Source: Octopus vulgaris
Taxonomy: Eukaryota
Reading direction: 5' to 3'
Assembly (NCBI GenBank): GCA_951406725.2
Contig: OX597819.1
Coordinates: forward strand, 59,520,001 to 59,584,000
Length of the DNA: 64,000 bases
Below the pieces are notes generated by a model that had not been told where the DNA came from, ran no database searches, and saw nothing but the letters and a program-made list of their open reading frames with translations. A program made the position numbers and the translations under genes. How positions within the stretch are numbered: the first letter of the stretch is position 1; each line of letters begins with the position of its first letter. Positions 34 to 57,781 of this stretch are shown in pieces.

Positions 34-551
34 TTTTTTCCTTCTTTCTTCAAATTTTCTTTCATTTCTCACCGAGTATTTTCTGTACACCTAGCGCAGA
101 GAAACTCATTGTATGCATTCCCAGATTACACACGAAAATTCACAGGTAATATATGTATTTTAAAAAAATTAATGAATAAATAAATTCATGAATGGATGTT
201 ATTTTCACAGCGATAATGCTCTTCTCAGTACATGAGCCGTTCCAGTTAGCATGATTTTTTGCATTTCCTGTAGGGATGGTAAGCTTGGTATCATTTTCAA
301 ATAGGCTTCAGTACCTTTTTTTTATCATTCCAAGAGATCCTACAATCACTGGTACTGTAGTCACCTTGAGATGCCACAATTTTTTCAATTTTTGTTAGCA
401 AGTCTTTGTATTTACTGATCTTGTCAAATTCTTTTGCCACTATATTGTGATCACAAGGAATACTCATGTCAATTAATAAACACTCCTGTTTTCTCTGATC
501 TTTTATAATAATATCCGGTTTATTAGCTTTTATAGTTTTGTCGGTATGTAT
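34..551 (-). mobile_element. 5'-truncated R4/Dong-like non-LTR retrotransposon (restriction-like endonuclease C-terminus plus 3' UTR)
   Basis: Minus-strand translation HTDKTIKANKPDIIIKDQRKQECLLIDMSIPCDHNIVAKEFDKISKYKDL, then after a frameshift GTEAYLKMIPSLPSLQEMQKIMLTGTAHVLRRALSL*. PD..D and K..KY pattern of RLE domains. Flanked by (ATT)n at 7-33 and 552-582. Confidence 0.85.
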
Positions 552-621
552 AATTATTATTATAATTATTATTATTATTATTGTTGTTGTTGTTGTTGTT
601 ATCATTATTATTACTATTGTT

Positions 622-1067
622 AAGGCGGTGAGCTGGCAGAACTGTTTAATACATCAGGCAAAATGCTTTGCGGTATTTCATCTGCCTGTGCGTTCTGAGT
701 TCAAGTTCTGCCAAGGTCGACTTTACCTTTCATCCTCTTGGGGTCGATAAAATAAACACTGAGGTTGATATTATCTACTTACTCCTTACACCAAAATTTC
801 AAACTTTGTGCCTATATTAGAAGGGATTATCATTATTATTATCATTATGTTAAGGTGGTGAGATAGAAGATCTGATAGCACGCTGGGCAAAATGCTTAGT
901 GGTATTTTACCTGTTACTACACACTCTGAGTTCAAATTATGCTGAGATCAACTTTGCCTTTCATCCTTTCAGATTTGATAAATTAAGTACCAGTGAAACA
1001 CTGGGGCTGTTGTAATTGATTGGTTCCCTCCCACAAAATTTTGGGTCTTGTGTCTATAGTAGAAAGG

Positions 1068-1068
<1 letters not shown>
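622..1068 (+). mobile_element. Two tandem copies of SINE family A (622-828, 851-1068)
   Basis: Head AAGGCGGTGAGCTGGCAGAA, B-box-like GAGTTCAA and central CTTTGCCTTTCATCCTTT..GATAAA..AAGTACCAG; the same unit recurs at 8071, 13059, 20021 and (minus) 44290-44470. Confidence 0.8.
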
Positions 1069-1118
<50 letters not shown>

Positions 1119-1471
1119 GAGTGAAAGAGCAATACATGCCATCAAAGGGGTACTGGGGTAAAATATACAAAGTCCAATATACCCATCATGACTACCTGTC
1201 TGATAAGGGTACACTAGGCACATGCATTACAACCATATGTGCATGGCATGGTGATCTCATATCAAGATAAACAGCACATGACCTTGCAGGTGGAGGCCAG
1301 TTAGAATTTTCTTCAGGTCAAATAATCCGTTCTGCTGAAAAGGTCCCTGAATAAGAGTTGTTTAAGGATGTTGAATGCAACACCCATGTTTCCAGAGGCA
1401 AATCATTCAAACCTCAAAGGAAGTCCTCTCAACACATGGCTATGATGCTTCCCCACTACTTCTGCTCGTGA
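1119..1471 (-). mobile_element. Non-coding segment associated with R4/Dong-like elements (probable 5' part)
   Basis: Homologous to 22880-23140, which is joined directly to an RLE coding end; abuts (ATT)n at 1068-1118. Orientation inferred from that second copy. Confidence 0.55.
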
Positions 1472-1483
1472 GGGCCATATTGG

Positions 1484-1789
1484 GCCGAGTTTGAGTACAT
1501 GCTCCAACTTGGCCTCATACGCCCCTCTACCAGCCCATGGGCATCTTCCCTTCACTTGGCATGAAAAGGAGAGTCTGATTTTCACCCGGTAGGAGATTAT
1601 CAATGCCTCAATGCAGTAACAATACCAGATCGATACACCATAAGAATTCTTCAGGATTTTTCAGTGAATTATCATGGCTGTACCATTTTTTCAAAAGATG
1701 ATCTTTTACATGCTTATCACCAAATACCAGTCAACCCAGCCGATGTTCTGAAAACTGCTATTACCACCCCTTTTGGGTGCTTTGAGTTT
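1484..1789 (+). mobile_element. Ty3/Gypsy reverse transcriptase fragment (decayed)
   Basis: AEFEYMLQLGLIRPSTSPWASSLHLA*KG..GDYQCLNAVTIPDRY..IFSKDDLLHAYHQIPVNPADVLKTAITTPFGCFEF matches the N-terminal motifs of Gypsy RT; one in-frame stop. Confidence 0.9.
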
Positions 1790-2763
1790 TGGGGGAACAA
1801 GCAAGGGTTGGTGCCAGGAAGGGCATCCTTTGATAGAAAATCTACCTCAACAAATTCTGTCTGATTCATGCAAGCATGGACATTAAAACGATGGTGGTGG
1901 TGGTGGTTTATACAGTGTGAGCCGATGGCCCAACATGTTCAACAGATCACTTAATGCACATGCTAAAGCAACTTCTTTTATAATATCTTGTTTTCTTTAA
2001 TACATATAATCTAAAACAGCAAAATAATAATGTGAAACATGTTGTACAACTCTAATGAAGTCTGAAAAAAAAAAACATAGCTTGAGTATATTGGCAAATA
2101 AATTTTTAAACACTTCCCCAGAATGCATAGTTCTGGCTTTGTTCAAGCATTGTTCCCATTCTTGATTCTTTTCTAAAAGATTCAGCGTCTGGCGTATGTG
2201 TTAAAATTTTTGCAGACAACATAGTTAACAGTAAGCATATTAAAACTTTCAGCACCTGCCTTGCTGAAGGCAATAATCTAAGATAAAAGTGCTCTCCCTC
2301 AGAAGTCTGCCCTGCTAATTATATATATATATATATATATATATGCATGTGCATGTGTGTTTGCTTTCAAGTGCAATCATAGCAGAGATAACAGTGAAAA
2401 AAGGTGGTGAAGGTGACCAGGATGCTCTCACTGTATTCTTCCCCTTCTACCTCACTTGCATTGTTGATACCCTCCTACCTCCCCTTCTCTTATTTCTCTG
2501 GGCTCCCTGCACTCACCTTCTGAACTTCCCCTCCTACATCTCTTTTCCACACTGACTCCTCCCTATGGTTTCTTTAGCTCCTCATTACTCTCTATCCCCT
2601 TCAAGCACCCCTCTCTTTACCTGCCCCTTACATAATATATGATCATATATAGATATATATAAATATAGGTAGATAGTTAGATAGATAGATATGTATACAT
2701 GATATAAAATATACATATTTATATATATATGTTTGTTATCATGTATATATATGATATCAATGT

Positions 2764-23606: not shown

Positions 23607-24344
23607 TTCTCTCTCCACAACTTCTGTCCCTCCACTATCTTCACCTCACTCCCCCCACCTCATAAACCAAGTTTTTGTCTCAAATTATTATCATTACAAC
23701 TACAAATTACATTCTGAGTTGAAATTCCTCCAAGGTCAACTTTGCCTTTCATCTTTCGCCACCACCATGCCACCCATGACAATGATATCAATGTCTTCAT
23801 CATACATGTTTGAATTTCAACTTACATGCTTTGCTGCACACTACACAATTAGTATATTCCAGACATGGTGATAAAAGATTGCTAAATGTAGATTGCTTTT
23901 GTGAACATAGCATGTGATTTCACGTGATCAATGAAGCCTGCTTTGCAAAGAACATATTCACAGGCTTTGTACTTTCTGCTTTTCAAACTATGCAAGGCTC
24001 ATTTCAGCTCAGCATTTTCGATCTATCCATTCTCAAACATGTTGCATCATTCCTTAATGGATATTTCCAGTCATTCTGAGTTTCTGTCAGCTATTTCCAA
24101 TTAGATTTATTGTTAGCTTGTTGTTAGGTTGTATTTTATGCAGCCCATATATCATTTTTTAGAATACTTTGTGATCCCCCCTCCTCCTCCGTCCCTCCTC
24201 CTCCACCTCCTTCTCCTTGCCTCCTCCATCTCTTCTCTGCCTCCTCCTATCTTACTCCTCCCTTCTTCCTTCTCCCTCTCTTCTCTGCATCCTCCTTTTC
24301 TTCATCCTATTCCTCTCTTCCTCTTCTTCTCCTGCTTCCTCCTC

Positions 24345-24850
24345 CTCAAGAAACTGCAGGTATGGAAACAAGGTCTGGAATAAAAAAGGCCTTAGAGTTA
24401 ATTTAGCAAATACCAAAGTCCTGATAAGTAGGAAAACAGACAACTCACAGATCCCTTCAAGGAGACGGTACTGCTCAATATGTAGAAAAGGCATCAGGAA
24501 AAACTCCAAGCTATGGACACATAAGAGGTGCAGCAGAAGACTAAGAGAGGAAGTAGTCATTACATGTGGCAGATCTGCAGGTACATTAAACACCAGGAAT
24601 GAACCAAAAATAGACTCCCTCATATGTCAGGTGGGATCCTTAGAAGTAATAGACATTTTCCATTACTTAGGTGACCATAGGCGCAGGAGTGGCTGTGTGG
24701 TAAGTAGCTTGCCAACCAACCACATGGTTCCGGGTTCAGTCCCACTGTGTGGCATCTTAGGCAAGCATCTTCTGCTATAGCCTCAGGCCGACCAATGCCT
24801 TGTGAGTGGATTTGGTAGACGGAAACTGAAAGAAGCCTGTCGTATATATG

Positions 24851-31365: not shown

Positions 31366-31734
31366 ATATAAACAAAGTGAAGTACACAGAAATAAACATT
31401 ATTTTCCATCATACTGTTCATTTTGTTTCATTTTGAAAAACAAAAGTTTATTTCGCGGTTTATTACTGTTTACGTTTTGAATTACAGATATGTATCGGGG
31501 TGGGGGATCAAAATCTTTTAAGTGCTTAGGGCTTCTATGAGTCTAAATCTAGCCCTGCACTTATGCACAATCACCCATAAGCCACCTATATACAATAATC
31601 AACAACACCATTGGGTCAATCAGTCTCAAAATACTATCAGTTGTTTGATTGTTGCAACTTCTTTTGTAAAATCATCACCACATGGTTCTGGGTTCAGTCC
31701 CACTGCATGGCAACTTGGGCAAGTGTCTTCAACT

Positions 31735-32270
31735 TGAATATCAATCATCTGGAAGCCGTTCAGCGACGTGCAACCAAAAGAATACCCTCCATCAGGCATT
31801 TGCCATATCCTGAATGCCTTACTTCCCTGGGCATGGACACATTGAAACTCCGACGTCTGGCAGCTGACTTGGCAGACACCCATAAAATTATCAACCATTG
31901 TACAAACAATAACTCTGAGCACCTTTTCAAACTCCACCCATCTAACACCCGTGGACATATTTACAAAGTAAGAAAACAGCACAGATCCTTCCATGACTTC
32001 AGGAAACATTTTTTTCACGCTGAGAGTTGCTGAAGCATGGAACAAACTGTTGTTGGTTGTCGGAGCATTGCATCCTTCAAGATTTCCATGCTTTCTGAGA
32101 TTCGCCAACACTACACCTGATTTTCTCCCCTCCATACACACACAAGCATGTATCTGACTCATACATTGTTCGCTTTCCAGACATTTTTACATTACTGCAT
32201 GTACTTTATATGCACTTTCTGACAAGTTGTGGTGCACCTGAGCACTGTATACAATAATTTTATTATTATT
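31735..32270 (+). mobile_element. CR1-type LINE 3' end inserted into a family B SINE (31675-32517)
   Basis: LEAVQRRATKRIP..LRRLAADL..NTRGHIYKV..RKHFF..AWNKL, 3' UTR and (ATT)n tail; AACT duplicated at 31731-31734 and 32271-32274, and the SINE reads through GTGTCTTC-AACT-ATAGCC. Confidence 0.9.
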
Positions 32271-40500: not shown

Positions 40501-43500
40501 AGAAGGATATGTACACAGCCCTTTCTGACAAACTAAACCAATTTAAAAAAAAGAAGAAAAAAAAGGTTCTCTTTCTATATAAACTTCTTGTTATTTTAGT
40601 TCCTGAAAGTGAAAGAAATGACTCCAGATTAAAAGGCATTCCAGCTAATACTATTCCATGTCTTCAGGTCCAATTCATCTAACATTGTGATCATTTTTTA
40701 GTTGATAGAGTATGAATTTCTATCTTGCAGATCAAATAACCTGATAGAGGTATGATACAGCAATTAGATGGCAGAATACTAGCTTCACGGACTAAATACT
40801 TTGCAATATAAAGTTGTCTTCCTTTACTTACATTTCAGTCTTCCCATTATCAAAATTTCTTTTCATCCTTTTAAAACTGTTGTCATTTAGTCCCAAGTTA
40901 GCTCTGATTAAGCATGTCTATGATCATAAGTGTTTCAGCTATGATCATCCTACATTTTGGGATATCTCAATCAACATTATCCATTTTGTTCTTCCTAGAT
41001 TAAGTGTAGTGTGATTTAAAAGAAGTTGGCTTTTCATTAACAGAACGAGTGATCATGTACAAGCTCCTTGCTGACTCAGAATTGATAACATAAGTATAAA
41101 TCAAAAACTAAAATCCTTTCTTATAAATTTGAGACCTTGTGCCAAATGTTAGAAATTTCAAGATTTTATAAAAAAATATGATATAACTCATATCAGATCA
41201 GAAACTGTCCTAAATTATTGAAGTATAATAAGCTAAAATGTTAGTAATGAAAACATTTTATTAGTCTCGCAGCAGAAACATTTAACTGGGCATTTTGCTG
41301 CATGAAAACAAATTTATTCTTTAGTTAATTATAGTTTAAGTTTGACAAAAATCTCATTTTCAGTACCATCATTCATAAAATATTTCCAAAGATAGATGTG
41401 CTAATAAATATACAGTTACTTTGAGTGGCAGAGATTATTAGCATAGATATCTAGTTCAAGAGGCAATTAATTCAAAGTAACATTTTTTTCACACTTTACT
41501 ACTTATTAGAAAACAAGTCTCTCACACACGTGGTGATTATACACTAGTGTTAATTTTCAGGAAGTTGGTAGAGAAAGCTTGACAGGATCTAAACAGATTT
41601 ATGACAATGATTACCTCCAGCTCTTTCAGTTAATTCTGAAAACAAAAGCAGCTACAGAGTTATACACATGAATTAATTTAGTGAAAGCTTAAATATAAAA
41701 AAAAAAATGACTGATGGTTATTTTCAGTGGGGCTTAACAAAAATGACAAAAAAAAAAGGGAAACAATAGAAAATTTGTTTTGGTATATAATCACTCAGTG
41801 AAATTTTATATTCTTAAAATAGATTTTACACTTTAAAATTAGTCACCTGATCTAATTAATTTTTAGTGTTAAAATGGGTTAAAATAAGTAGCTTAATCAA
41901 AAGATAAATACTTAATGAAAGGGTATAAATAAATATTTGTAGTTTCAGACGAGGTTACTTAGAAAGATGAGTTTTAAAATCTAAGGTTGAATTAATAGTA
42001 ACCAATCAATGTATGAATGCAGTTAGATCTGTTATGATTAAGAATTTCCTTTCATAATCACAGTTCCAACTTCAATCTCACCATTTCGGAAAAATGTCTT
42101 TTGGCTATACCCTTGGTTCAATTCAAGCCTTATAAGCAAAACTGGGTAGACAGAAACTATGCAGAAACCCACCAAAACAAACTGTAATTATTTTGGGATG
42201 ACAGACTTAATCTATCAACTTAACATCTTCAGCTATGACTACTGGACTCTGACTACAACAAATGAGTCTTATTCCCTTTCCACCAGGAGGTGCTGCAAAA
42301 ATAAATACATAAATGAAGTCTTCATGGGCATTGTCCTGTCTCCTCCCTCAGCTATACAAAAAAGCAGCACTTGTGAAGATGGAGCTTAGCATATTGATAA
42401 CTGCTTGCTGAAAAATGACATTTAAAATTTGTGGAATTGATTCTTTTCTGCTTTCTATTTTAGAAAACACTTAGGATTTTTAGATTTACAGTAACAATCA
42501 TATCCAAAAGAATCGATTTTATAGCAAAAGATTAAATTAACAAAATTATACATCAGAAAACACAGAATTCAAATTTTCTTCTTCAATTTATTTAACATTT
42601 TTTTTTTCTTTTTACTTGTCAATTTTTTTTTTACTAACCTTTTGCAAACATTGTACCAAAAAGTCAATAAATACATAACAGGCAAGATCACAGGTCAACA
42701 ATACAGATAACAACTCTTCAAAATGTAATATGAGGTGGAAAGAAAGAAAATGAGTAAAAATGTGTTACTAGAGGCAGAAGAATTTATATTTTCAACCAAT
42801 CAAAAAATTCAGAATTTAACCAGCTGTTACTCAGGAAAAATAAATGCTCAAGAGGTTTAAATAAAAAAAATAAAAAAAAGGTCTGAGAGAGAGATTTATC
42901 TGACAAAGATGATGATAATAGTAGTATGGGTATTTGGTGGGTAAATGTGTTTCTGACATACACGCATACTTGGTTTAAATTGTTGATATCTTGCTATGTC
43001 AACAACAGCAGTAACAGATTATGTAGTTAGCTACAATGGAATGCTCTCTACATAGATGAGATCACAGTTGTAGAATGAACTGAATATATTTATTAGGAGT
43101 GCGTGTGTGGGGTTGTATTATATATATATACACCATACATATATTATATGAGAGATAGATATATATATATTTAGACACACACACACACACACATGTATAT
43201 AGTCACACAAACATATATATATATAGAGACACACACACATATATGATACATATATATACATATATATATATATACATAGATACATATAACTCTAAGGAGC
43301 CCATCCTACATATATATGTGTGTGTGCGCGCGCGCGCATGTGTGTACACAGACACACACACGTGTCCCCACTTGTCTTCGCATCACAGAATGGTTGTGGA
43401 CACAAGTGTCAGTCACGTAAGTGACGTCTTCCATGAAAAATGTCTGGCTATAGGAAAAACATTACTTTGTTTGATTACAGGTGAGAGGTAGCAACAGGAA

Positions 43501-43666
43501 GGGGGATCTGGTTGCAGAAAATCTGCTTCAACAAATTTCGTCTGTCCCATGCAAGCACAAAAAAAGCAGATATTGAAACAATGATGGCAAACGAAAGTAC
43601 GGCGATAGCTTCTTGTTTATATATATGCTATATATGCCTGTATGTAAATTCTTACACATGTGTGCA

Positions 43667-43709
<43 letters not shown>

Positions 43710-44289
43710 GCATTTTATTAGAGGCTGAAAATAATTGCTTTAAACTGCTGATACTTAATAGAGAGATAAACTTAATATTCTTAACAATTATATGTGAATG
43801 CTGTTTTGTATAACAGATGGAATGTGTTAAATCCCTAGCTTAAATTACATACAAGCAATTGTTAAACATCCAAAATAGACCCAGAAACTAATATATGGTC
43901 AATAAATAGCTGTAAAGCAATTCAAATAACCTAAGAAAATTTTGGGGTCGATATTTTTCCTCCCGAGTGAGTAAATTAACAGGGAGATGTTGAGGAAACA
44001 AGAACTGATTAAAGATAGAAGGGTAGGAAAATATGCTAAGCAAACAAAAAATGTAGTTGTTAGGGTAATAATAATTCTTATATAGGCTACATATTTTGGG
44101 GATTAAATCGACTTTACTCATTGACTGGTACATATTTTGTCAACTTCCAAAGAGATGGAATGCTAAATAGATCTCAACCAGACTTGAGCTCAGGAAATAA
44201 AGAGACGTAATTAAATACTACAAAACATTTTGTCTGGCACTAACCGGTTGTAACTCACCGTCACAACAATAACATTTTGGGCACAAGAC

Positions 44290-44470
44290 CAGAAATTTTG
44301 AGTAAACGATATTGGTCGATTAAATCGACCCCAGTACGTGACTGGTACTTTTTTCTTCGTGAAATGTAAAGTTGACTCCGGCAGTATTGAACTCAGAAGG
44401 TGAAGAACCGAAACTAAATAACACAAATGCAATTTGTTCGACGCTCTAACAATCCTACCAATCCAGAACC
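44290..44470 (-). mobile_element. SINE family A copy (last clear SINE before the gene island)
   Basis: TCGACCCCAGTACGTGACTGGTACTT..TTGAACTCAGAA; a more decayed copy lies at 44060-44260. Confidence 0.7.
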
Positions 44471-47400
44471 CTAATAATTAATGCTTACACTACATTTTTA
44501 TCATTAATTAAGCATTTATTGTGGAGGTGTAAACTTGGTGGAATAAATTACTGCCAATAAAAAGAGTTTCTTAATAAAACACAAGACTGGCTTTTATAGA
44601 GTTATTGCTACTCCTTACTTAACTGTCGAGAAATCCAAAGTTGATCCTCAACATAATTACTCATCCTCTACTACATTTGGTCTGGAGCAGTCCCAGCCAT
44701 TTCCACTGTTATAATGATAATATATCTTTGCTATTACTATAAGCTACCTGCGAATTACAAAATTAATAAGGTCAATTAAGAGACAGATTTCGAAAATGTA
44801 CAAGTGAAAAGAATGTATTAGTAACCTTATTCTAGTGTTCCATTATTATCACCTGAATAGTGAAATATATGTCAAATAAACATTTATGTAACAGATTATT
44901 ATTATTACTATACTTCATGACATATTTCCCAGTAAACAATACAAGCAGGTTTGAGCTCAATACTGTCCTCCCGTCGCCGCCCTGTAACTCTAACTGAGCT
45001 GCCTTTCGTCTAGTGGAAGAGACTTTGGTAAATAATCTGAATTCCACAGCAAGAAACATACTATTGAGAAGAACGCAGCCAGTCAGCTAAGGTAAATAAA
45101 ATAACAAATATGCAGGGAGGAGGAGGAAGAGGTAATGCTTGTTTATATTTGTGAATGTGTGTGTGTTTGTGTGTCTGGTCTAGGCCAGAGGTCGAAGTAG
45201 AGAAGTATCTCTTTGTGCTGAAAATAAAGTGGACGTAGAAATGGTAGAATCCAGCAAATATTGAGTATCTATAGAGGGGAAAAAAAAAAACGTATTGACA
45301 AAATCGATAGAATAAACAAAGAACAACAGAGAGAAGAAAGAAATAAAGAGGAAGATGAGAGAGACGGAGGGGGCGGAGAAATGCTTAAGTTAGGGAGTGG
45401 GTGGTCGGTGGATCTCTGTAGCAAGCATTGAATAACGACGCAAGCACATGCTTATCGACAGCACCCTGTCTGTGTAGAAGCCTCCATTCCTACCTAAACT
45501 CTAGATAAAAGTCACGTTTTGAGCCTCGTTGGACGGCAGCAGAGAGTCACAATAACAAATTAGTGAAAACAACTACCACCACCTTCAACGAAATAAGCAT
45601 CAACTAAAAGTACACAAGACACTACTTTGAGATTTATTATGTACTGAGTTTGAAATGTTTGATAAACATAGGGAATACCTCAAATGTACTGAGAAAGCGG
45701 GAAATGAGAAGTTGATACATTCATGCATCTCTCAAAGGCGTTTAAGAAACATGGTGAAAACCACAAAACAAGAGACCGAATTTTAGAATCGACTCCGAAA
45801 GAAAATAAAAATAAAAAAAAGCTACTGCATCTTAATATTGATGTGTGTGTTTTTTTTTTCTAAATAATTTTTAAAGAATACCTAGATCCTTTAATATTAT
45901 CGTTTGCAACAGTTACTATTCGCTTAGTAGACAATCTAACGATTATTTTAGATTGAGTTTATATTCCTTCAGAAAAACCTCACATGTACACATTCTAAGC
46001 AATAATATAAAAAAAAACAAAAAAACAAAGGAGGTACTATGAAGTTGTAAGGGGTGGAGAATGATATTTATGTCTTAAAATACATCTGTGATAAAATTAT
46101 TGATAAATGCATATTAACTATATAATTGCACAAAAATGCTGGCTAGGGTAGTGACAAACATATATATATATAAAATATATATATATATATATACATACAC
46201 ACCTAAACACGAGAAAGAGAAGGTAGAGGGCAAAGATAAGGAGGCCGCCAGAAAAGAGCGATGTGTCATAAATAGCAAGACGAGAGAAGGTCAACAACAT
46301 CCTGGACTTGTTGATAAACAGCCTGCTGCGAAGACTGTGTAAAAAAAGACTGGTCAATAACAGTAAACAATAACAAGATCATGTATCTTAGACATGAACT
46401 ATCTTGAGACACGCATTGTAAATAACGCATCTACACGTGTAAGCATGAAATACATGCTTAGGTAACCCCCCCAGGACATGCACACACCTATATATATATA
46501 TATAGTTATATACTTATATATACAATATACATATATATATATTCACATTCATGTGTGTGCATAGGTATGTGTAGATACAGTTAGGTGCAGATATTTAATA
46601 AACTATACTTGTATGTATGTATGTCTATATATATATGCACGTATACATATATACTCATATTTATACACATATATATATATACATACACACACACACAAGA
46701 GCATAAATTATATAAGTATATTATATTATGCTAAGATAGCTGCGTGTTATAATTGTAATTCGCAGTTAGATAGCAGTCTGCCAGGGGAAAAATGAAACTG
46801 ATAATTTGTTTTAAATTCATCTGAAAAAATATTAAGACTTCCTAGAAAAGTATTAAAGAGAGACGCTGATAATTGCATAGATTATCAACATTAATTAGCA
46901 ACAATTTAAAGACCATCGTAATTTAAATAACCTTAACGTAGAGTGGTGAGGATGTGTGAAGGAGAGAAAAAGATAGACCCAGATTGCTTTTTTTTTTTTT
47001 GGTCTTTTAAATACCTAAGTAAATTTCAACTGAAAACTGTATATGTGTATCTGAGAGTCGTTTATTCCACACCGCCCCAGATCAACCCTGAACGAGGGAG
47101 GAAACATTCAATCAATCTTTCCAACCGTGACCATTAGGTATTTTTTTCTAACTCTTCTAGACAATCCAATCTGTCTTTCCACTGACAGACAGTACGGCGA
47201 GATTTTGGCTCGTGTGTCCGAATTATTTATGGCACCGGGGTAGAGGCTGCGTCGGTTTAGAGTCGGTGTCAGCCATGCTATATTTTACCAGGGAGGACCC
47301 ATCGCTAATTAAAAAAAAAATCCTATATAGTACAGTTGTGTATGTGTGTAAGAGAGAGTTGCCTAATATACATAGCAATGAAAACAACCTTCCGCATTCA

Positions 47401-47616
47401 GTTGCACTGTAAATATTTTCATATATATTAAATTACCAACGGTCACTAATATCCACGCTGGTGGACAGAGGGAGTTGTAAATATATATGCTGATTTTTTT
47501 TTCTAATCGTGAAAATAGCCAAAATAAAAACTGATAAAGCAGAACAGTATGTATGTGTATCTATAGAGAATATATATATAGAGAGAGACATTATTTATAC
47601 ACACATATACATACAT

Positions 47617-47648
<32 letters not shown>

Positions 47649-47786
47649 CATATGCATGCGTATGTGATAAATTTATATTCTTTACCACCCTATAAAAAAA
47701 TAATAAACCACGAGGGATGTCGATTTGTTTGGGCTGATGATAAAATTGAGTGGAGTGGGAAGGTAGAGAAATTAAACACACACCAC

Positions 47787-47825
<39 letters not shown>

Positions 47826-48847
47826 CGTACATATACACACACAACACTGTTGTGGTGGTGGAAGATGAAGTGTTGTTGATACAAGAGACTAGCGTGACCG
47901 AAGAAGCAGCATATATACTAAAGACAGTGCCACCCACACAAATCAAACCAGACAAAGAGCAACCACAGAACTGCGGGCAAAAATTAAAAATATATATTTA
48001 TATTTGTATGTAATATATACAGAAAAAAAAACAACACAAAACAAAATTCAAATGATCTGATTTTTTTCTTTAAAGAATTTAAATTACGGTATTTTTTTAA
48101 ACTTTCAGCATCAATAATTACATTTGTGTGTGTGTATGAGTGTATATAAAATTTAATTAAAAATATGCATTTTTCAAATAATTATATGGTTGGGAAGGGG
48201 AACACCAAATGTAGTTATGTCATATATATGTATGTATATATATGTGCATCATACATTTGTATGCATGTGCGTATATATTAAGTACATATCTATATACCTA
48301 TGTGCATATATTTGCATGCGTGTATCTGTGTGCACATACGTATATACATATATGTGAATCATACATCTATATGCATATATTTATGACCATGCACATATTT
48401 ATATACACACAAATATAACCATAGAGATGTAACACAATATATATATACATATGCATATACACACACATATATTTTTAAAAAAGACTGTCATTGACAAAGA
48501 AAACATTTGCATTTTTAAAGGACAAAAATAATGAACGATGATGGTAATAATGATAATACTAATAATAATATCTGAATAGAATTAGTTAACAATAGTAACA
48601 AGTACTGGATATCTGACGTGTACACGTTCGATCCGAGAACGCAGCTATAATTTACACATTAAATATTACCAAAAAATTTACATTATCACTCCGTCTCGGG
48701 GATTAGTATATTTTTCCATGTATTATTATTATTATTATTATCAGTATCATTATTATTATTAGAATAGAAATATAGCAAACGAAATTGTTGGAAATCACAG
48801 ATACTATTTGGAAAAATTTTAATCGACCTCCAGCCATGAAACCATGG

Positions 48848-48874
48848 GTAAATTAAACCATAGGTTTAATTTAC
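48848..48874 (-). promoter_or_regulatory. Perfect 12 bp stem, UAU triloop hairpin in the putative 3' UTR (CDE-like)
   Basis: Minus strand GUAAAUUAAACC-UAU-GGUUUAAUUUAC, about 550 nt downstream of the stop codon. The hairpin is seen directly; its function is inferred. Confidence 0.45.
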
Positions 48875-49230
48875 TGATTATAGAGAGATCGCTATTATCT
48901 CACCACCGAAATTATATATATATTATACACACACATATTCCGTAGCCACTAATGTTGTCTTGCCGGGTTATGCGGTTTGTTGTTCATACTGATATTTACC
49001 ATAGCTACTGAAACTAGCCATTTGGCTTCCTCTTTCAATAGTTAAAATATATACACACACAAACTAACCATATAGATGCGTATGGAGTGTGTGTGTGTGT
49101 ATATATATGTATATATTATACATATAAAGGAATGCCTATATACATAGATACACACAGACTCACATGTACGCTAGTTTACCCTCACCGTAATTTAGTTTCA
49201 CAGATAAATTATCTCCTTGCATAAACGAAA

Positions 49231-49261
<31 letters not shown>

Positions 49262-49419
49262 AATATATATGTGATGTGTGAAAAATGCATGTACATATGT
49301 ATGAAGTGAGTGCATGAGTGATGTTTGTGTGTATGTTTTTGTGTGGTGTGTGTGTATGTGTGTGAGTTAAAATCCACACATTTGAAATAATGTACATAAA
49401 ATGTTAAGTCAAAAATAAA

Positions 49420-50265
49420 TCATACGGTTACATCACAAAATAATTCACATTTGTCCCTAAAACTGTTTTGCTGAAATAGTAATAGTTGTTGTTGTTGACG
49501 TTCTTGCTGTAATGTACAGCAGCTGCCGGTCCCGACAGAGACCATGCCATTGTGTCCTACAGTAGTACCATTATTATTATTATTATTGTTGTTACTACTA
49601 TTACTATTATTATTAGTAGTAGTCATTATGGTGCTACTGTTAGGATTGTTGTTATTGTTTGTATCATTATTAATGGTTGTAGAACCAGTGCTTCTATGTA
49701 ATCCATACAGTCGACGCACAGCTTCCTGAATTAAAGTCTGTGTAGAAAGCAATTTTTGGTGATGCCTGTAGTCTGTATTACAACCGTTTCTAGTCCGGAC
49801 ATCTTCGATATACACATAATTTTTCCTCCTCTTGTTGACCACGTTCCTGTGGTTTAGCCGCTTCACAACCCATTTGTTATTGTTGTCATTATTATTGAAG
49901 TTGCCGTGCCGCCAATTACTTTTCACTCGGTTTAGATGTCTGTCTCGAACGGACGGTAAAACGTAAGGCAACCAGGTGCCGGCTGAGGCAGCTTTGCAAG
50001 GTTTAGTTGGTATTACCATGCTATCGTGGTCGATGGGGACATGTGCCTGATTACCGCCACTAAAAGTAGGATGGCGACTTGGCATGCTGCTTGCTGAAGG
50101 AGAAACCGACTTCAAATGGTGACCGGTTTCGCAATGGTTATGTTGATGTTGTTGTAACTGTAATGTTTCCTCGATACCACGAGTTAACCATTCGATATCT
50201 TTTAAATCCGTTTGATTCGAAGGGCTAACATTTACAGCTCCCATGCTTTCTAACCTGATCGGCAT
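49420..50265 (-). CDS. FRAT: FRAT/GBP-like GSK3-binding protein, single exon, 281 aa
   Basis: Longest ORF in the window, not TE-like, with an upstream in-frame stop (50335-50337) and A at -3. MPIR start (FRAT1 MPCR); aa23-37 DIEWLTRGIEETLQL (FRAT1 EVDRLVAQIGETLQL); aa99-104 LPYVLP (FRAT1 APYCVA); aa164-186 TDYRHHQKLLSTQTLIQEAVRRL (FRAT1 DPHRLLQQLVLSGNLIKEAVRRL). Motif order and intronless structure match vertebrate FRAT genes. FRAT1 sequence quoted from memory. Confidence 0.85.
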   Translation of the reverse strand: MPIRLESMGAVNVSPSNQTDLKDIEWLTRGIEETLQLQQHQHNHCETGHHLKSVSPSASSMPSRHPTFSGGNQAHVPIDHDSMVIPTKPCKAASAGTWLPYVLPSVRDRHLNRVKSNWRHGNFNNNDNNNKWVVKRLNHRNVVNKRRKNYVYIEDVRTRNGCNTDYRHHQKLLSTQTLIQEAVRRLYGLHRSTGSTTINNDTNNNNNPNSSTIMTTTNNNSNSSNNNNNNNNGTTVGHNGMVSVGTGSCCTLQQERQQQQLLLFQQNSFRDKCELFCDVTV

Positions 50266-50294
50266 ATTTGCTACGATGTAGTCTCCGACAGCGT

Positions 50295-50460
50295 AACTAA
50301 GGAGTAGTGGCCTATTTCTGTGTATATTTATATTTCACATTGATAAAAGTTCTTGTTCAAGCGAACAGCCAATACACGACTAGCTACAATTAACCACGAC
50401 CAATAACGTCACGTATAGGCCAATTAAAAATCCTCGTTACTTACTTCCCTTTGAACTGGC
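50295..50460 (-). promoter_or_regulatory. Core/proximal promoter of the FRAT-like gene
   Basis: TATAAATA on minus at 50332-50325; Inr-like TTAGTT at 50300-50295; CCAAT boxes at 50369, 50400 and 50420; CRE-like TGACGTTA (minus) at 50404-50411; ETS-like ACTTCC at 50443-50448; TCF/LEF-type CCTTTGAA at 50448-50455. Confidence 0.65.
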
Positions 50461-53239
50461 TAAAAATTTGAACGCTTCACTTTTGAATGGCATTGTAGTT
50501 TGTCTGTTGACATAGACATGTTACTACGCGTCAAGAAAATAAACCCAATGTTTTTTTCAAATAACTTTCATGTTATTCAAAATTTTTCGTTTTAATTTCA
50601 TATTAATATAAACTGAAACATTCTTAGTAAACATTATCTTCACACTTTATTAATATTCATTTTGTAATAAATAATTTTTATTTTGTAAACAAAGCCTCAG
50701 CAATGGCGTAATATATTAGCTACTTTATTCAGTAAACAGTAATATCATATTTAATAACCCCCTTCCCTAAAGCGGGTTATTATATTTCGATAGTGTTTTA
50801 TTGTTGTTTTGCTAACAAATAAACATTTTTGTACTCATATGGTGATTTATTGCAGTTTCAAAACAATCGGTTTAATAATCTGTAATAATGTATACCGGTG
50901 GCAGCTGTTTATGTTTATATATATTATGCCGGTTCCATCTCGAGTGAGACTTCTTAATGCTCTTGGTGATGTTAATAATAAACAAAACTAATTAACGAAA
51001 GCTGTCATAACTATATAAGTAGTATCTTGATGGAAGTAGCTTGTATTGCTGGTTATATTCATTGTACTTTGCAGTTGTTTGCATGTTTAAACAAACAACA
51101 CATGTTGCTTTGCAATATAAGTCGCCATTGTCTACTGAGAAGCGGTCACATTTGGAATAGACAGGATAAACATAAACTAACGGTCAACTGAATTCCGTTC
51201 AGAGAAATATAAAGAAGATACAGGGGTATGAAGCTAAAAACCGGCGTGCTAATGAGAACACGATATATACTTTCGTTATATTTTTGTATAACCGCCCTAC
51301 GATGGAACCATTTTAGGATTGCAACGCATTCCAGAGTTATCAATCACATGGGATGTATATAATGTTTATTGTTGTTGCCTCTTGTATGGGGTTACTGGGA
51401 CAAGGCGTTAGTGAGCAACTTTCTAACGAATATGGATGGCATCGTCATCGAAACTATGCAAAAGCAAGTCGCAGCATCTGTCACCTGGCAGGAAATAGTT
51501 CTTGGTTCTTTGGGTCAGTGTAATACCCAATGTGCGAATGACAATATCAATTAGGTATCAACCAACAAATACCATGAAACTTTAAATAGCGCCTTATAAG
51601 ATCAAAATAGTATTTATCAATTAGATTTTTACTAGAAAAATCCTTAACCAGAAAGTAATGTTGATAATTTATTTTTAAAAAGCTAGAATGAAATAGTAAA
51701 TCGAAAAGTCTCGAAGATTAAATTAAAAGTGAAAATCATTTTTAAATGTTTGTCGAGTTCATAGACATAATATAGAACGTAATATTTCCTTTTTATATCT
51801 TTTTACTCTATAAATAACTTGAAGATGGTAATATTTCGAGAGAAAATCTGGGTTTAGTGTATTATTTCTCTTCACTTCCCTTACACAAGTGCAAACTATA
51901 AATACATATTCCACCCTCACCTCCAAAACCATCTGAAGATATTTCTTTGGTGTCAGGAATTTTGGTGTTTCCTTTAAATAATATTTATTTTCCCGCACAA
52001 ATAATTAAGGATTAGTTTTCATTTAGCACCATGTAAATTCTGACCAAAATGTTACTACAAATTAATGTTTTCCACTCTGTTACTGTAAAGAAAACTTTAA
52101 AATGTAGCTGTAAGATAGCTATTTTCTTCTCAGCAACCCCAGTCATTAAAAGGAGTAACAGGGAACTTCAATCATTGATACAGCTATTTAGAAGATATCG
52201 TAAGGAGATAGTTTTTTTGTCGCTAATTCTATAGAAACAATCAGTAATATAATACAGTACATAAAACTGTGAGCTTGTTTATGGTCCCTATTGACAACTT
52301 AATGATGCAAGTGTTTTGTCACAGCAATTTTTATTTTAAATTTAAGAGAAAAGGGGCAACACATATGATCATAACAGGCTGTCCTAGACTGAGAAGACTG
52401 ATGAAGTTGATGTTCAATTTAAATTACAGATTGATAATTGCAAGAAAATCAGGAATTTTTTAGAGTTACAATTGTGGGGAGAAAGATTGTGAAAAACATT
52501 TTGAGTGCTGCCTTAGAGGTAAGATAAAATAATAGTGAATATTTTGTGTGTTCCCTAGGAGGTGAAATAGTTACTCAAGAAGGAGAAATGGATAAAGGAG
52601 GAATCAAACTACTAGTTCAAATAGATAGAGGCCATTGTATTAATGCTAGAAGAAACACAGAGAGGAAACTGCACCTCTGTAAAATAGTTGTGTGCTGGTC
52701 ATAAAATTACTGCTGTTAACATTTCTTTTTATGTAATGTAGAATGTTTGTGTAGCAGACAAACCAGTTCATATATGTAAGGGGTATTGCAATGTAGGTTT
52801 AAAATGAATGAATGACTATATGAAACAAGATACAGACACCACATCCTTGTATCAGATGGTCAATCATCTGACTCCATATCACAGGCAAGCAACAACGTTA
52901 TATGAGATGATAACATGCAGAGGAGGAATGGTGAGGGTCTTTTGGATAATATATTCTTACCACAATTTCTAAACCTGTGTTTCATGATAGTGTTCTTTAA
53001 ATGGTGCAAGCAAACTATTCACAGTCCAACACTTATATACCAATAGTTTTTTCAATTTAAAATGAAGGCCCATCCATTCATGAATTTGTGTGGTTAACTT
53101 TTTTTTATGTGAAGACCATGGTGTGAATAAACTGTATGTGTATTATAGATACTATAATACTCACATTTACTAAATCCAGCAGGTTATTTATTTGTATTGA
53201 ACACTGTATGATACCTGTTTATGGACAGATACATAAGAG

Positions 53240-57354: not shown

Positions 57355-57439
57355 TATATAAAATCTGTGTATAAATCTTGAAAAAATTACAAAAATCGAT
57401 TCCAGGTGAGAATGCGATCGATAAAACTGTGGGAACATG

Positions 57440-57781
57440 CTTTTGTATGCGCAAGTACATCAGCTGGATGTATTTGCGGATGATGTTCTTGAGGCAAAAG
57501 TTGTCATGGGTCAAGGAGCAGGAGATGTTTTTATTTCCTGCATGCCATTGATTCCGTCAGACTGTGTTTACCCGATGAAACGCATTCAATTCCCTATTCG
57601 CCTGAGCTTCGCGATGACGATCAACAAAGCACAAGGGCAGTCATTGAAAGTCGTGGGGTTGGACCTCAGCACTCCCTGCTTTTCACACGGACAACTGTAT
57701 GTGGGCTGTTTGACAAACCTTTTCTACTACGCTCCAGATGGAGTAACAAGGAATGTGGTTTACAAGGCTGCACTCCACTAG
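57440..57781 (+). mobile_element. Helitron Pif1-like helicase C-terminal fragment
   Basis: MPLIPSD..KRIQFPIRLSFAMTINKAQGQSLKVVGLDLSTPCFSHGQLYVGC..TRNVVY; the SRV after YVxC is missing. Confidence 0.9.

Follow-up and report, generated by a model that had tools for sequence, protein, structure and literature searches.

FRAT and GBP proteins bind GSK3 at its Axin site, remove Axin and stabilize β-catenin, leaving the catalytic site unblocked (PMC2169372, PMC6974163, PMC3529405). A 2020 paper states that TMEM98, like FRAT, is conserved in vertebrates and absent from invertebrates (PMC6974163). The original prediction, made for the 64-kb stretch of DNA analyzed here (the window), had mentioned such a vertebrate-specific description, which is indeed in print, and had proposed that an intronless open reading frame (ORF) encodes a FRAT/GBP-like protein in a cephalopod genome.

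The octopus origin of the stretch is well supported, and the fit of the public O. vulgaris model described below makes the source Octopus vulgaris or a species very near it. The ORF lies on the minus strand, which the earlier description had left unstated, and no other stop-to-stop frame in a six-frame translation of the window reaches its 304 codons (the runner-up has 201). We found one match to the locus in the 2.8-Gb genome of the octopus itself, making it single copy, and the GC content of the ORF is 41%, compared with 29–32% in its flanks. The expectation of a 281-aa product unrelated to transposable elements was borne out: the sole Pfam family for the protein, P0001, is GSK-3_bind, with no transposon family. 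Within 300 nt upstream of the ATG there are four ATTGG (CCAAT) words, one TGACGT and one TATAAA, all consensus matches only. We recognized no second protein-coding gene in the 64-kb window and no Rfam match in positions 41000–52000. Elsewhere in the window, a Mariner/Mos1 transposase HTH remnant (PF17906; 18593–18904, minus strand) scored E=0.0008, below the cut-off. Four short frames at 297–653 (minus), 24175–24780 (plus), 31599–32033 (plus) and 57425–57781 (plus) gave no Pfam match at E≤0.01; by eye, they resemble tails of LINE reverse transcriptases and the end of a PIF1/Helitron helicase.

Features of the locus, with positions counted from the first letter of the window
Feature	Position	Strand	Basis or remark
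ORF, FRAT/GBP-like protein P0001, 281 aa	49420..50265	minus	ATG at 50265 to stop at 49420, uninterrupted
Start motif MPxRxE, residues 1–6	50248..50265	minus	at extreme N-terminus, like fish GBP
Box I, residues 22–38 (KDIEWLTRGIEETLQLQ), predicted helix	50152..50202	minus	shuffle test, hhalign, low-confidence model
PY segment, residues 98–105	49951..49974	minus	vertebrate box II-like; not significant; octopods only
Basic stretch, residues 134–148, ends KRRK	49822..49866	minus	sequence, alignments
Box III, residues 164–186, FRATtide counterpart	49708..49776	minus	core LIQEAVRRL at 49708–49734
N/T/Q-rich tail, residues 193–281, poorly conserved	49420..49689	minus	identity counts against P0004
Promoter-like stretch	50332..50549	minus	consensus matches only
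Candidate 3' untranslated region, ~6 kb	43366..49419	minus	contigs, piecewise; 4/4 runs guessed to be RNA
Second exon of public model CAI9724285.1	41589..41635	minus	GT at 49919, AG at 41636

A whole-protein search with P0001 returned three matches from 644 candidates, all of cephalopod type. A second search, of 1.84 billion representatives, also returned three, one of which (P0006) was dropped as a repeat protein unrelated to FRAT. The named relatives come from O. bimaculoides (98% identity), O. sinensis and Argonauta hians (72%), and the ENA/Logan proteins P0004, P0005 and P0007, which are 43–46% identical to P0001 in alignment, probably come from squid or cuttlefish. In P0007, P0016 and P0017, an in-frame upstream ATG places a basic leader of about nine residues before MPIRL; this leader is absent at the octopus locus.

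Four motifs separated by low-complexity linkers had been predicted, and in P0001 they are MPIR(LE) (residues 1–6), LTRGIEETLQL (27–37), PY (100–101) and LIQEAVRRL (178–186). The three-box nomenclature of FRAT/GBP counts a middle PY box as box II, and a PY box is visible in the fish and bird alignment rows. To gauge chance, each motif was compared in an anchored test with catfish GBP and ranked against 4,000 shuffles; the p-values are somewhat flattered because the reference sequences were retrieved with profiles holding cephalopod rows. The start motif (p=0.001), box I (p≤0.00025; p=0.0005 against bird FRAT) and box III (p≤0.00025 against both catfish GBP and bird FRAT) lay beyond chance, as did box I (p=0.008–0.04) and box III (p=0.0015–0.003) of P0004 and P0007. 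The PY box occupies its expected position in octopods and was within chance (p=0.22 against catfish GBP and 0.86 against bird FRAT). Three of the four motifs thus hold up in the predicted order, and the PY box does not. The linkers are rich in S, H, N, K and R but are not pure repeats, and most of the poly-N/Q follows box III, in the tail.

A comparison of P0001 with P0004, whose identities use no vertebrate sequence and whose block limits are taken from the fish alignment, showed 6/6 identical residues in the start motif, 11/17 in box I and 20/23 in box III. Outside the boxes, 14/59 and 24/58 residues were identical in the linkers and 22/95 in residues 187–281. Because the boxes are conserved and the linkers and tail are not, selection appears to keep just the three FRAT-like blocks. 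The start motif is 6/6 identical in all cephalopod-type proteins compared and 4/6 identical in catfish GBP, and box III falls from 20/23 in distant relatives to 10/23 in catfish GBP. The PY segment is 8/8 identical in Octopus and Argonauta, 1/8 in P0004 and P0007, and absent from P0028, a metagenomic protein described below. The basic run, also retained in alignments with distant relatives, is a possible nuclear-localization signal.

Predicted docking on GSK3

Helices that dock on GSK3 follow the pattern L/FxxxL/AxxRL (PMC9794558), and P0001 has it as L178-x3-A182-x2-R185-L186. FRATtide comprises two short helices whose main contacts are P199, L203, V207, L212 and R219 (PMC9049898). In an ungapped register in which the FRAT number equals the octopus number plus 34, the chief contacts of the C-terminal helix, L212 and R219, are retained, V207 is conservatively replaced by L173, and Q204 and L206 are kept. 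The N-terminal helix has D165 in place of P199 and H169 in place of L203, and Q176 stands where FRATtide has the turn glycine G210. The predicted GSK3-binding motif therefore stands in its core helix, LIQEAVRRL, while non-conservative substitutions affect P199 and L203, two of the five main contacts. The AlphaFold model of P0001 (mean pLDDT 41) places helices at residues 21–42, 164–173 and 178–189 with low confidence; the latter two mirror the two short helices of FRATtide.

On the kinase side, one octopus GSK3 exon corresponds to human GSK3-β 239–303 at 62/65 residues, with groove residues L266, V267, I269, I270 and F291–I296 unchanged. This exon (L013:1405–1599, minus strand, contig C5 of the octopus genome) holds the whole Axin/FRAT-binding groove. 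Two GSK3 patterns had one match each, which suggests that the octopus has a single GSK3 gene, judged from sequence; one further pattern had no match because the octopus differs there by one residue. A complex prediction for residues 157–192 with the octopus GSK3 exon, a 65-aa kinase fragment entered without alignments, scored 0.05 (mark 0.34). We found no full-length animal GSK3 in the viral or prokaryotic collections. An intron-containing eukaryotic GSK3-like gene (L023:1210–1758) lies on a Desulfosporosinus MAG contig of the prokaryotic genome set and is probably contamination. Directly after RCYRAP its frame has a stop at a position that should hold a conserved residue, which suggests a non-standard genetic code.

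With the core helix and the matching groove of GSK3 preserved, the second helix likely serves for docking, perhaps with altered affinity, and we would expect with good confidence that the octopus protein binds GSK3. We consider it probable that P0001 is a divergent cephalopod FRAT/GBP orthologue whose C-terminal helix would dock in the Axin-binding groove and compete with Axin, modulating β-catenin turnover. The remainder of the protein would be predicted disordered linker, with box I as a likely second interaction helix. By analogy with Xenopus GBP and FRAT1, actual displacement of Axin with a Wnt/β-catenin output is only slightly favored. FRAT is dispensable for Wnt signaling in mice and its activities are partly GSK3-independent (PMC6974163), so a modulator is to be expected, and a GSK3-docking helix need not change Wnt output (PMC9794558).

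The same observations would suit a true homologue that still docks by its conserved second helix, or binds weakly, but whose job has shifted to GSK3 location, other substrates or non-canonical signaling, without release of β-catenin. All aligned cephalopod-type proteins carry HHQK at the site of LLQ[EQ] in fish, bird and P0028, all lack the turn glycine, and a long basic insertion precedes box III in the cephalopod alignment; FRAT1 also works through JNK/AP-1 (PMC3529405). However, the core helix, the groove and the conservative L173 are kept, and a protein filling the groove should compete with Axin if it is abundant enough, as can be inferred from PMC2169372. We therefore regard a shifted job as unlikely.

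Relationship to FRAT/GBP

Membership by the Pfam profile, proposed as a check, was not obtained: PF05350 scored P0001 at 12.2 bits (E=0.12), against a curated cut-off of 25 bits. Residues 146–192 scored 13.7 bits and the O. bimaculoides protein 12.9 bits. GSK-3_bind was also the only Pfam family for P0002 and P0014; P0003 had no match, and P0004, P0005 and P0007 matched unrelated families instead. Against PDB, whole P0001 gave eight matches at E≤10, including FRATtide (E=0.78) and FRAT1 (E=2), and residues 146–192 gave a single match among 177,635 sequences, FRATtide (E=0.051). Profile A2, built from four cephalopod-type sequences with no vertebrate rows, had no PDB match at E≤10. When searched against 5.8 billion proteins, A2 returned nine matches at E≤10 from 3,557 candidates, five of cephalopod type and four fish-type GBP proteins (E 0.56–7.5), all four carrying PF05350. 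The three best ESM Atlas clusters carry PF05350 (0.90 with 203 shared features, 0.89 and 0.88); the Atlas warns for P0001 that recognition (1543) is under the mark, and the best family matches agree in 4/10. Four libraries (Pfam, PDB, ESM Atlas and the protein profile search) thus indicate FRAT/GBP, each weakly.

In the fish–cephalopod alignment the blocks are collinear, and fish and cephalopod proteins alike begin with the start motif at residue 1. An hhalign comparison of residues 1–43 with FRAT/GBP gave E=0.0005 (probability 32%), and local HMM profiles of box I scored P0001 below zero. PF05350 gave 29 matches elsewhere in the octopus genome, the P0001 locus not being among them; 28 of these fell on the first 63 positions of the profile and many contained stops, and we took them as probable noise from its acidic N-terminus. 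A mixed fish–cephalopod profile, searched among proteins of 469–2000 aa, found one bird FRAT and no named invertebrate. A bird protein annotated as "dapper homolog 3-like" (P0027, XP_041320456.1) contains PF05350 together with both box I and box III; it is a FRAT whose N-terminus is lengthened by a long extension that looks spurious.

A metagenome scan of 101 stretches yielded two loci, a fish-type fragment (L011) and L012, a contig whose FRAT-like ORF (667–1815, plus strand) is uninterrupted and encodes P0028, a protein of about 380 aa. Four start variants of the L012 protein, the form from the true first ATG not being among them, were absent from the protein collection. P0028 scored 21.8 bits with Pfam GSK-3_bind (E=1.4e-4), below the cut-off of 25, and aligned with the octopus protein at E=3.9e-5 by hhalign, with 13/23 identical residues in box III. 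It keeps the vertebrate LLQELI and glycine and shares the Y, T and LIQEAVRRL with the octopus protein (Y..Q.L...TLIQEAVRRL). A box III profile of five vertebrate rows scored P0001 at 11.6 bits; with P0028 added to the vertebrate rows, the score was 17.7 bits (E=0.003 per 30,000 proteins), which none of 3,000 shuffles and none of 1,750 background ORFs reached. By its sequence, P0028 is a bridge between the vertebrate and cephalopod forms of box III, and L012 is probably of invertebrate origin. Like the octopus protein, P0028 has a box I-like helix and S/N-rich linkers; unlike it, P0028 retains LL and G in its first helix, and a long spacer separates its N-terminus from box I.

The octopus protein resembles vertebrate FRAT1/FRAT2 and fish and Xenopus GBP (PF05350; PDB 1GNG chain X; catfish TTA40570.1) in its MPxRxE start, a box I helix that closes with E[TA]LQL some 35 residues from the start, a C-terminal LIxEAVRRL helix with equivalents of L212 and R219, motif order and disordered linkers. 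It differs from them in overall identity (24–28%), in having D165/H168/H169/Q176 for P199/L202/L203/G210, in the unsupported PY box, and in the basic insertion before box III and the long N/T/Q tail. Axin, GSKIP and WWOX likewise place an L/FxxxL/AxxRL helix in the same GSK3 groove (PMC9794558), but they have folded domains of their own, whereas the octopus protein has the FRAT-specific start and box I; P0001 gave no Pfam match at E≤10 to the Axin, GSKIP or WWOX domains (RGS, DIX; DUF727; WW, SDR).

An unrelated disordered cephalopod protein that had evolved a GSK3-type docking helix independently, or resembled one by chance, would explain why every whole-protein score to FRAT is sub-threshold and why our homologue searches retrieved no non-cephalopod mollusc or annelid member and hence no intermediate mollusc; docking motifs of this kind are short and turn up in proteins with no common origin (PMC9794558). 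It would leave unexplained why the start motif and box I, both outside the docking motif, agree with FRAT in place, why four different libraries recover GBP/FRAT exclusively, and why P0028 exists as an intermediate. We consider such convergence very unlikely, and common descent of the octopus protein with vertebrate FRAT very likely from the sequence comparisons. The proposed FRAT/GBP homology is thus well supported by profiles, shuffles and P0028, the PY box and the Pfam score speaking against it. As judged from these alignments, P0001 is a divergent, previously unrecognized cephalopod FRAT/GBP homologue that misses the Pfam cut-off and has a remodeled first helix.

Gene models and transcription

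Public databases hold models of this gene from O. vulgaris (CAI9724285.1), O. sinensis (XP_036359875.1), O. bimaculoides (A0A0L8HJX8) and Argonauta (GAB1598336.1). They are named "hypothetical", "uncharacterized" or "transcription factor mef2A-like", and none is named FRAT or GBP; the N/T/Q-rich tail is the probable cause of the "mef2A-like" name. The models represent the same gene as P0001. CAI9724285.1 agrees with it over residues 1–115, among them S82, a position held by N in O. sinensis and O. bimaculoides, but lacks box III: a canonical 8.3-kb intron (GT 49919 to AG 41636) yields a 130-aa product with box I, which, if real as a minor isoform, could be dominant-negative. In O. sinensis the model continues past box III and finishes with a short piece, located here at 48721 and adjoining an AAT repeat.

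Vertebrate FRAT/GBP genes are intronless, and the octopus gene had been predicted to be so as well. The 281-codon ORF is uninterrupted and one contig, from run X6, spans 49634–50317 without a break, across the donor at 49919, the RNA status of X6 being a guess; two public models, however, splice differently. The sole difference seen in the ORF in run X6 (position 50176) is silent. Among 24 runs no RNA holder is listed, and 14 of the 20 holders were guessed to be RNA. Contigs of four runs, which show presence only, left 50542–52000 uncovered, gave little cover of 41000–43200 and did not contain the 49919–41636 joint; most of the ORF was uncovered in three of the four, the filter omitting records. 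Contigs of all four runs, with RNA status guessed, lay over parts of 43366–49079. The region from 43366 to 49419 holds 31 ATTTA words and several AATAAA or ATTAAA signals, and the ~6 kb downstream of the stop is possibly a regulated 3' untranslated region, unusually long for a small gene.

That the long ORF is not a real product, being spliced to 130 aa without box III as the canonical join in O. vulgaris and the different end in O. sinensis might indicate, or that it reflects contamination or a transferred vertebrate gene, is the least probable of the explanations and is highly improbable, given that no long block is conserved better than box III (20/23 in distant relatives), that full-length forms with box III occur in O. 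bimaculoides, Argonauta and many assembled contigs, that the X6 contig is unbroken across the donor, and that identity is 24–28% to fish GBP while it grades 98–72–43% through the cephalopod relatives.

Age of the family

The original prediction held that an octopus orthologue would make the FRAT–GSK3 arm of Wnt signaling ancestral to bilaterians. The homology is supported, and the octopus shares FRAT motifs, so a regulator said in print to be missing from invertebrates is probably far older. That conclusion does not rest on the octopus gene alone, because arthropod clusters and a sea-cucumber row already exist, in line with the foreseen automated domain hits. Two ESM Atlas clusters (427 and 154 members) have Arthropoda as their commonest phylum, the phylum being known for 300 and 143 members, and PF05350 in 79% and 84%; this is a lead from cluster labels alone. 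A sea-cucumber study tabulates an entry called "GSK-3-binding protein" (PMC10740944), and its supplementary text file gives no accession for that entry. The invertebrate PF05350 entries (Atlas, sea cucumber and P0028) are automatic labels, and we compared the Atlas and sea-cucumber entries by label alone. The available portions of PMC8775565, PMC3953950, PMC12487263, PMC12095580 and PMC7339944 add nothing on the taxonomic range of FRAT. Among the matches listed in our literature search, which lay outside subscription journals, none described FRAT from a mollusc or other invertebrate, and supplements of genome papers may list such genes.

A broader reading makes FRAT/GBP an ancestral bilaterian GSK3 regulator present in molluscs, arthropods and echinoderms, with cephalopods having remodeled the first helix of the GSK3-binding region and the octopus protein displacing Axin and activating β-catenin without a Wnt ligand; we advance it tentatively, as somewhat doubtful. 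To our knowledge, FRAT/GBP is absent from Drosophila and C. elegans. On this broader reading, the family would have been overlooked because it is missing from the classic model fly and worm and because its linkers change rapidly.

The surprise is limited, as automatic labels already imply invertebrate members and FRAT is a dispensable modulator in mice. Taken together, the mollusc homologue, the arthropod clusters and the echinoderm label would move the origin of FRAT/GBP to at least the last common bilaterian ancestor, which contradicts a printed statement by a FRAT laboratory (PMC6974163). Four public gene models would be corrected, one of which (O. vulgaris) removes a functional motif. The single-copy octopus gene would allow tests in cephalopod development without the three-gene redundancy of the mouse. 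If the broader reading is true, the GBP-type mechanism of the frog dorsal axis would become testable as an ancient switch for axis formation or neurogenesis in spiralians.
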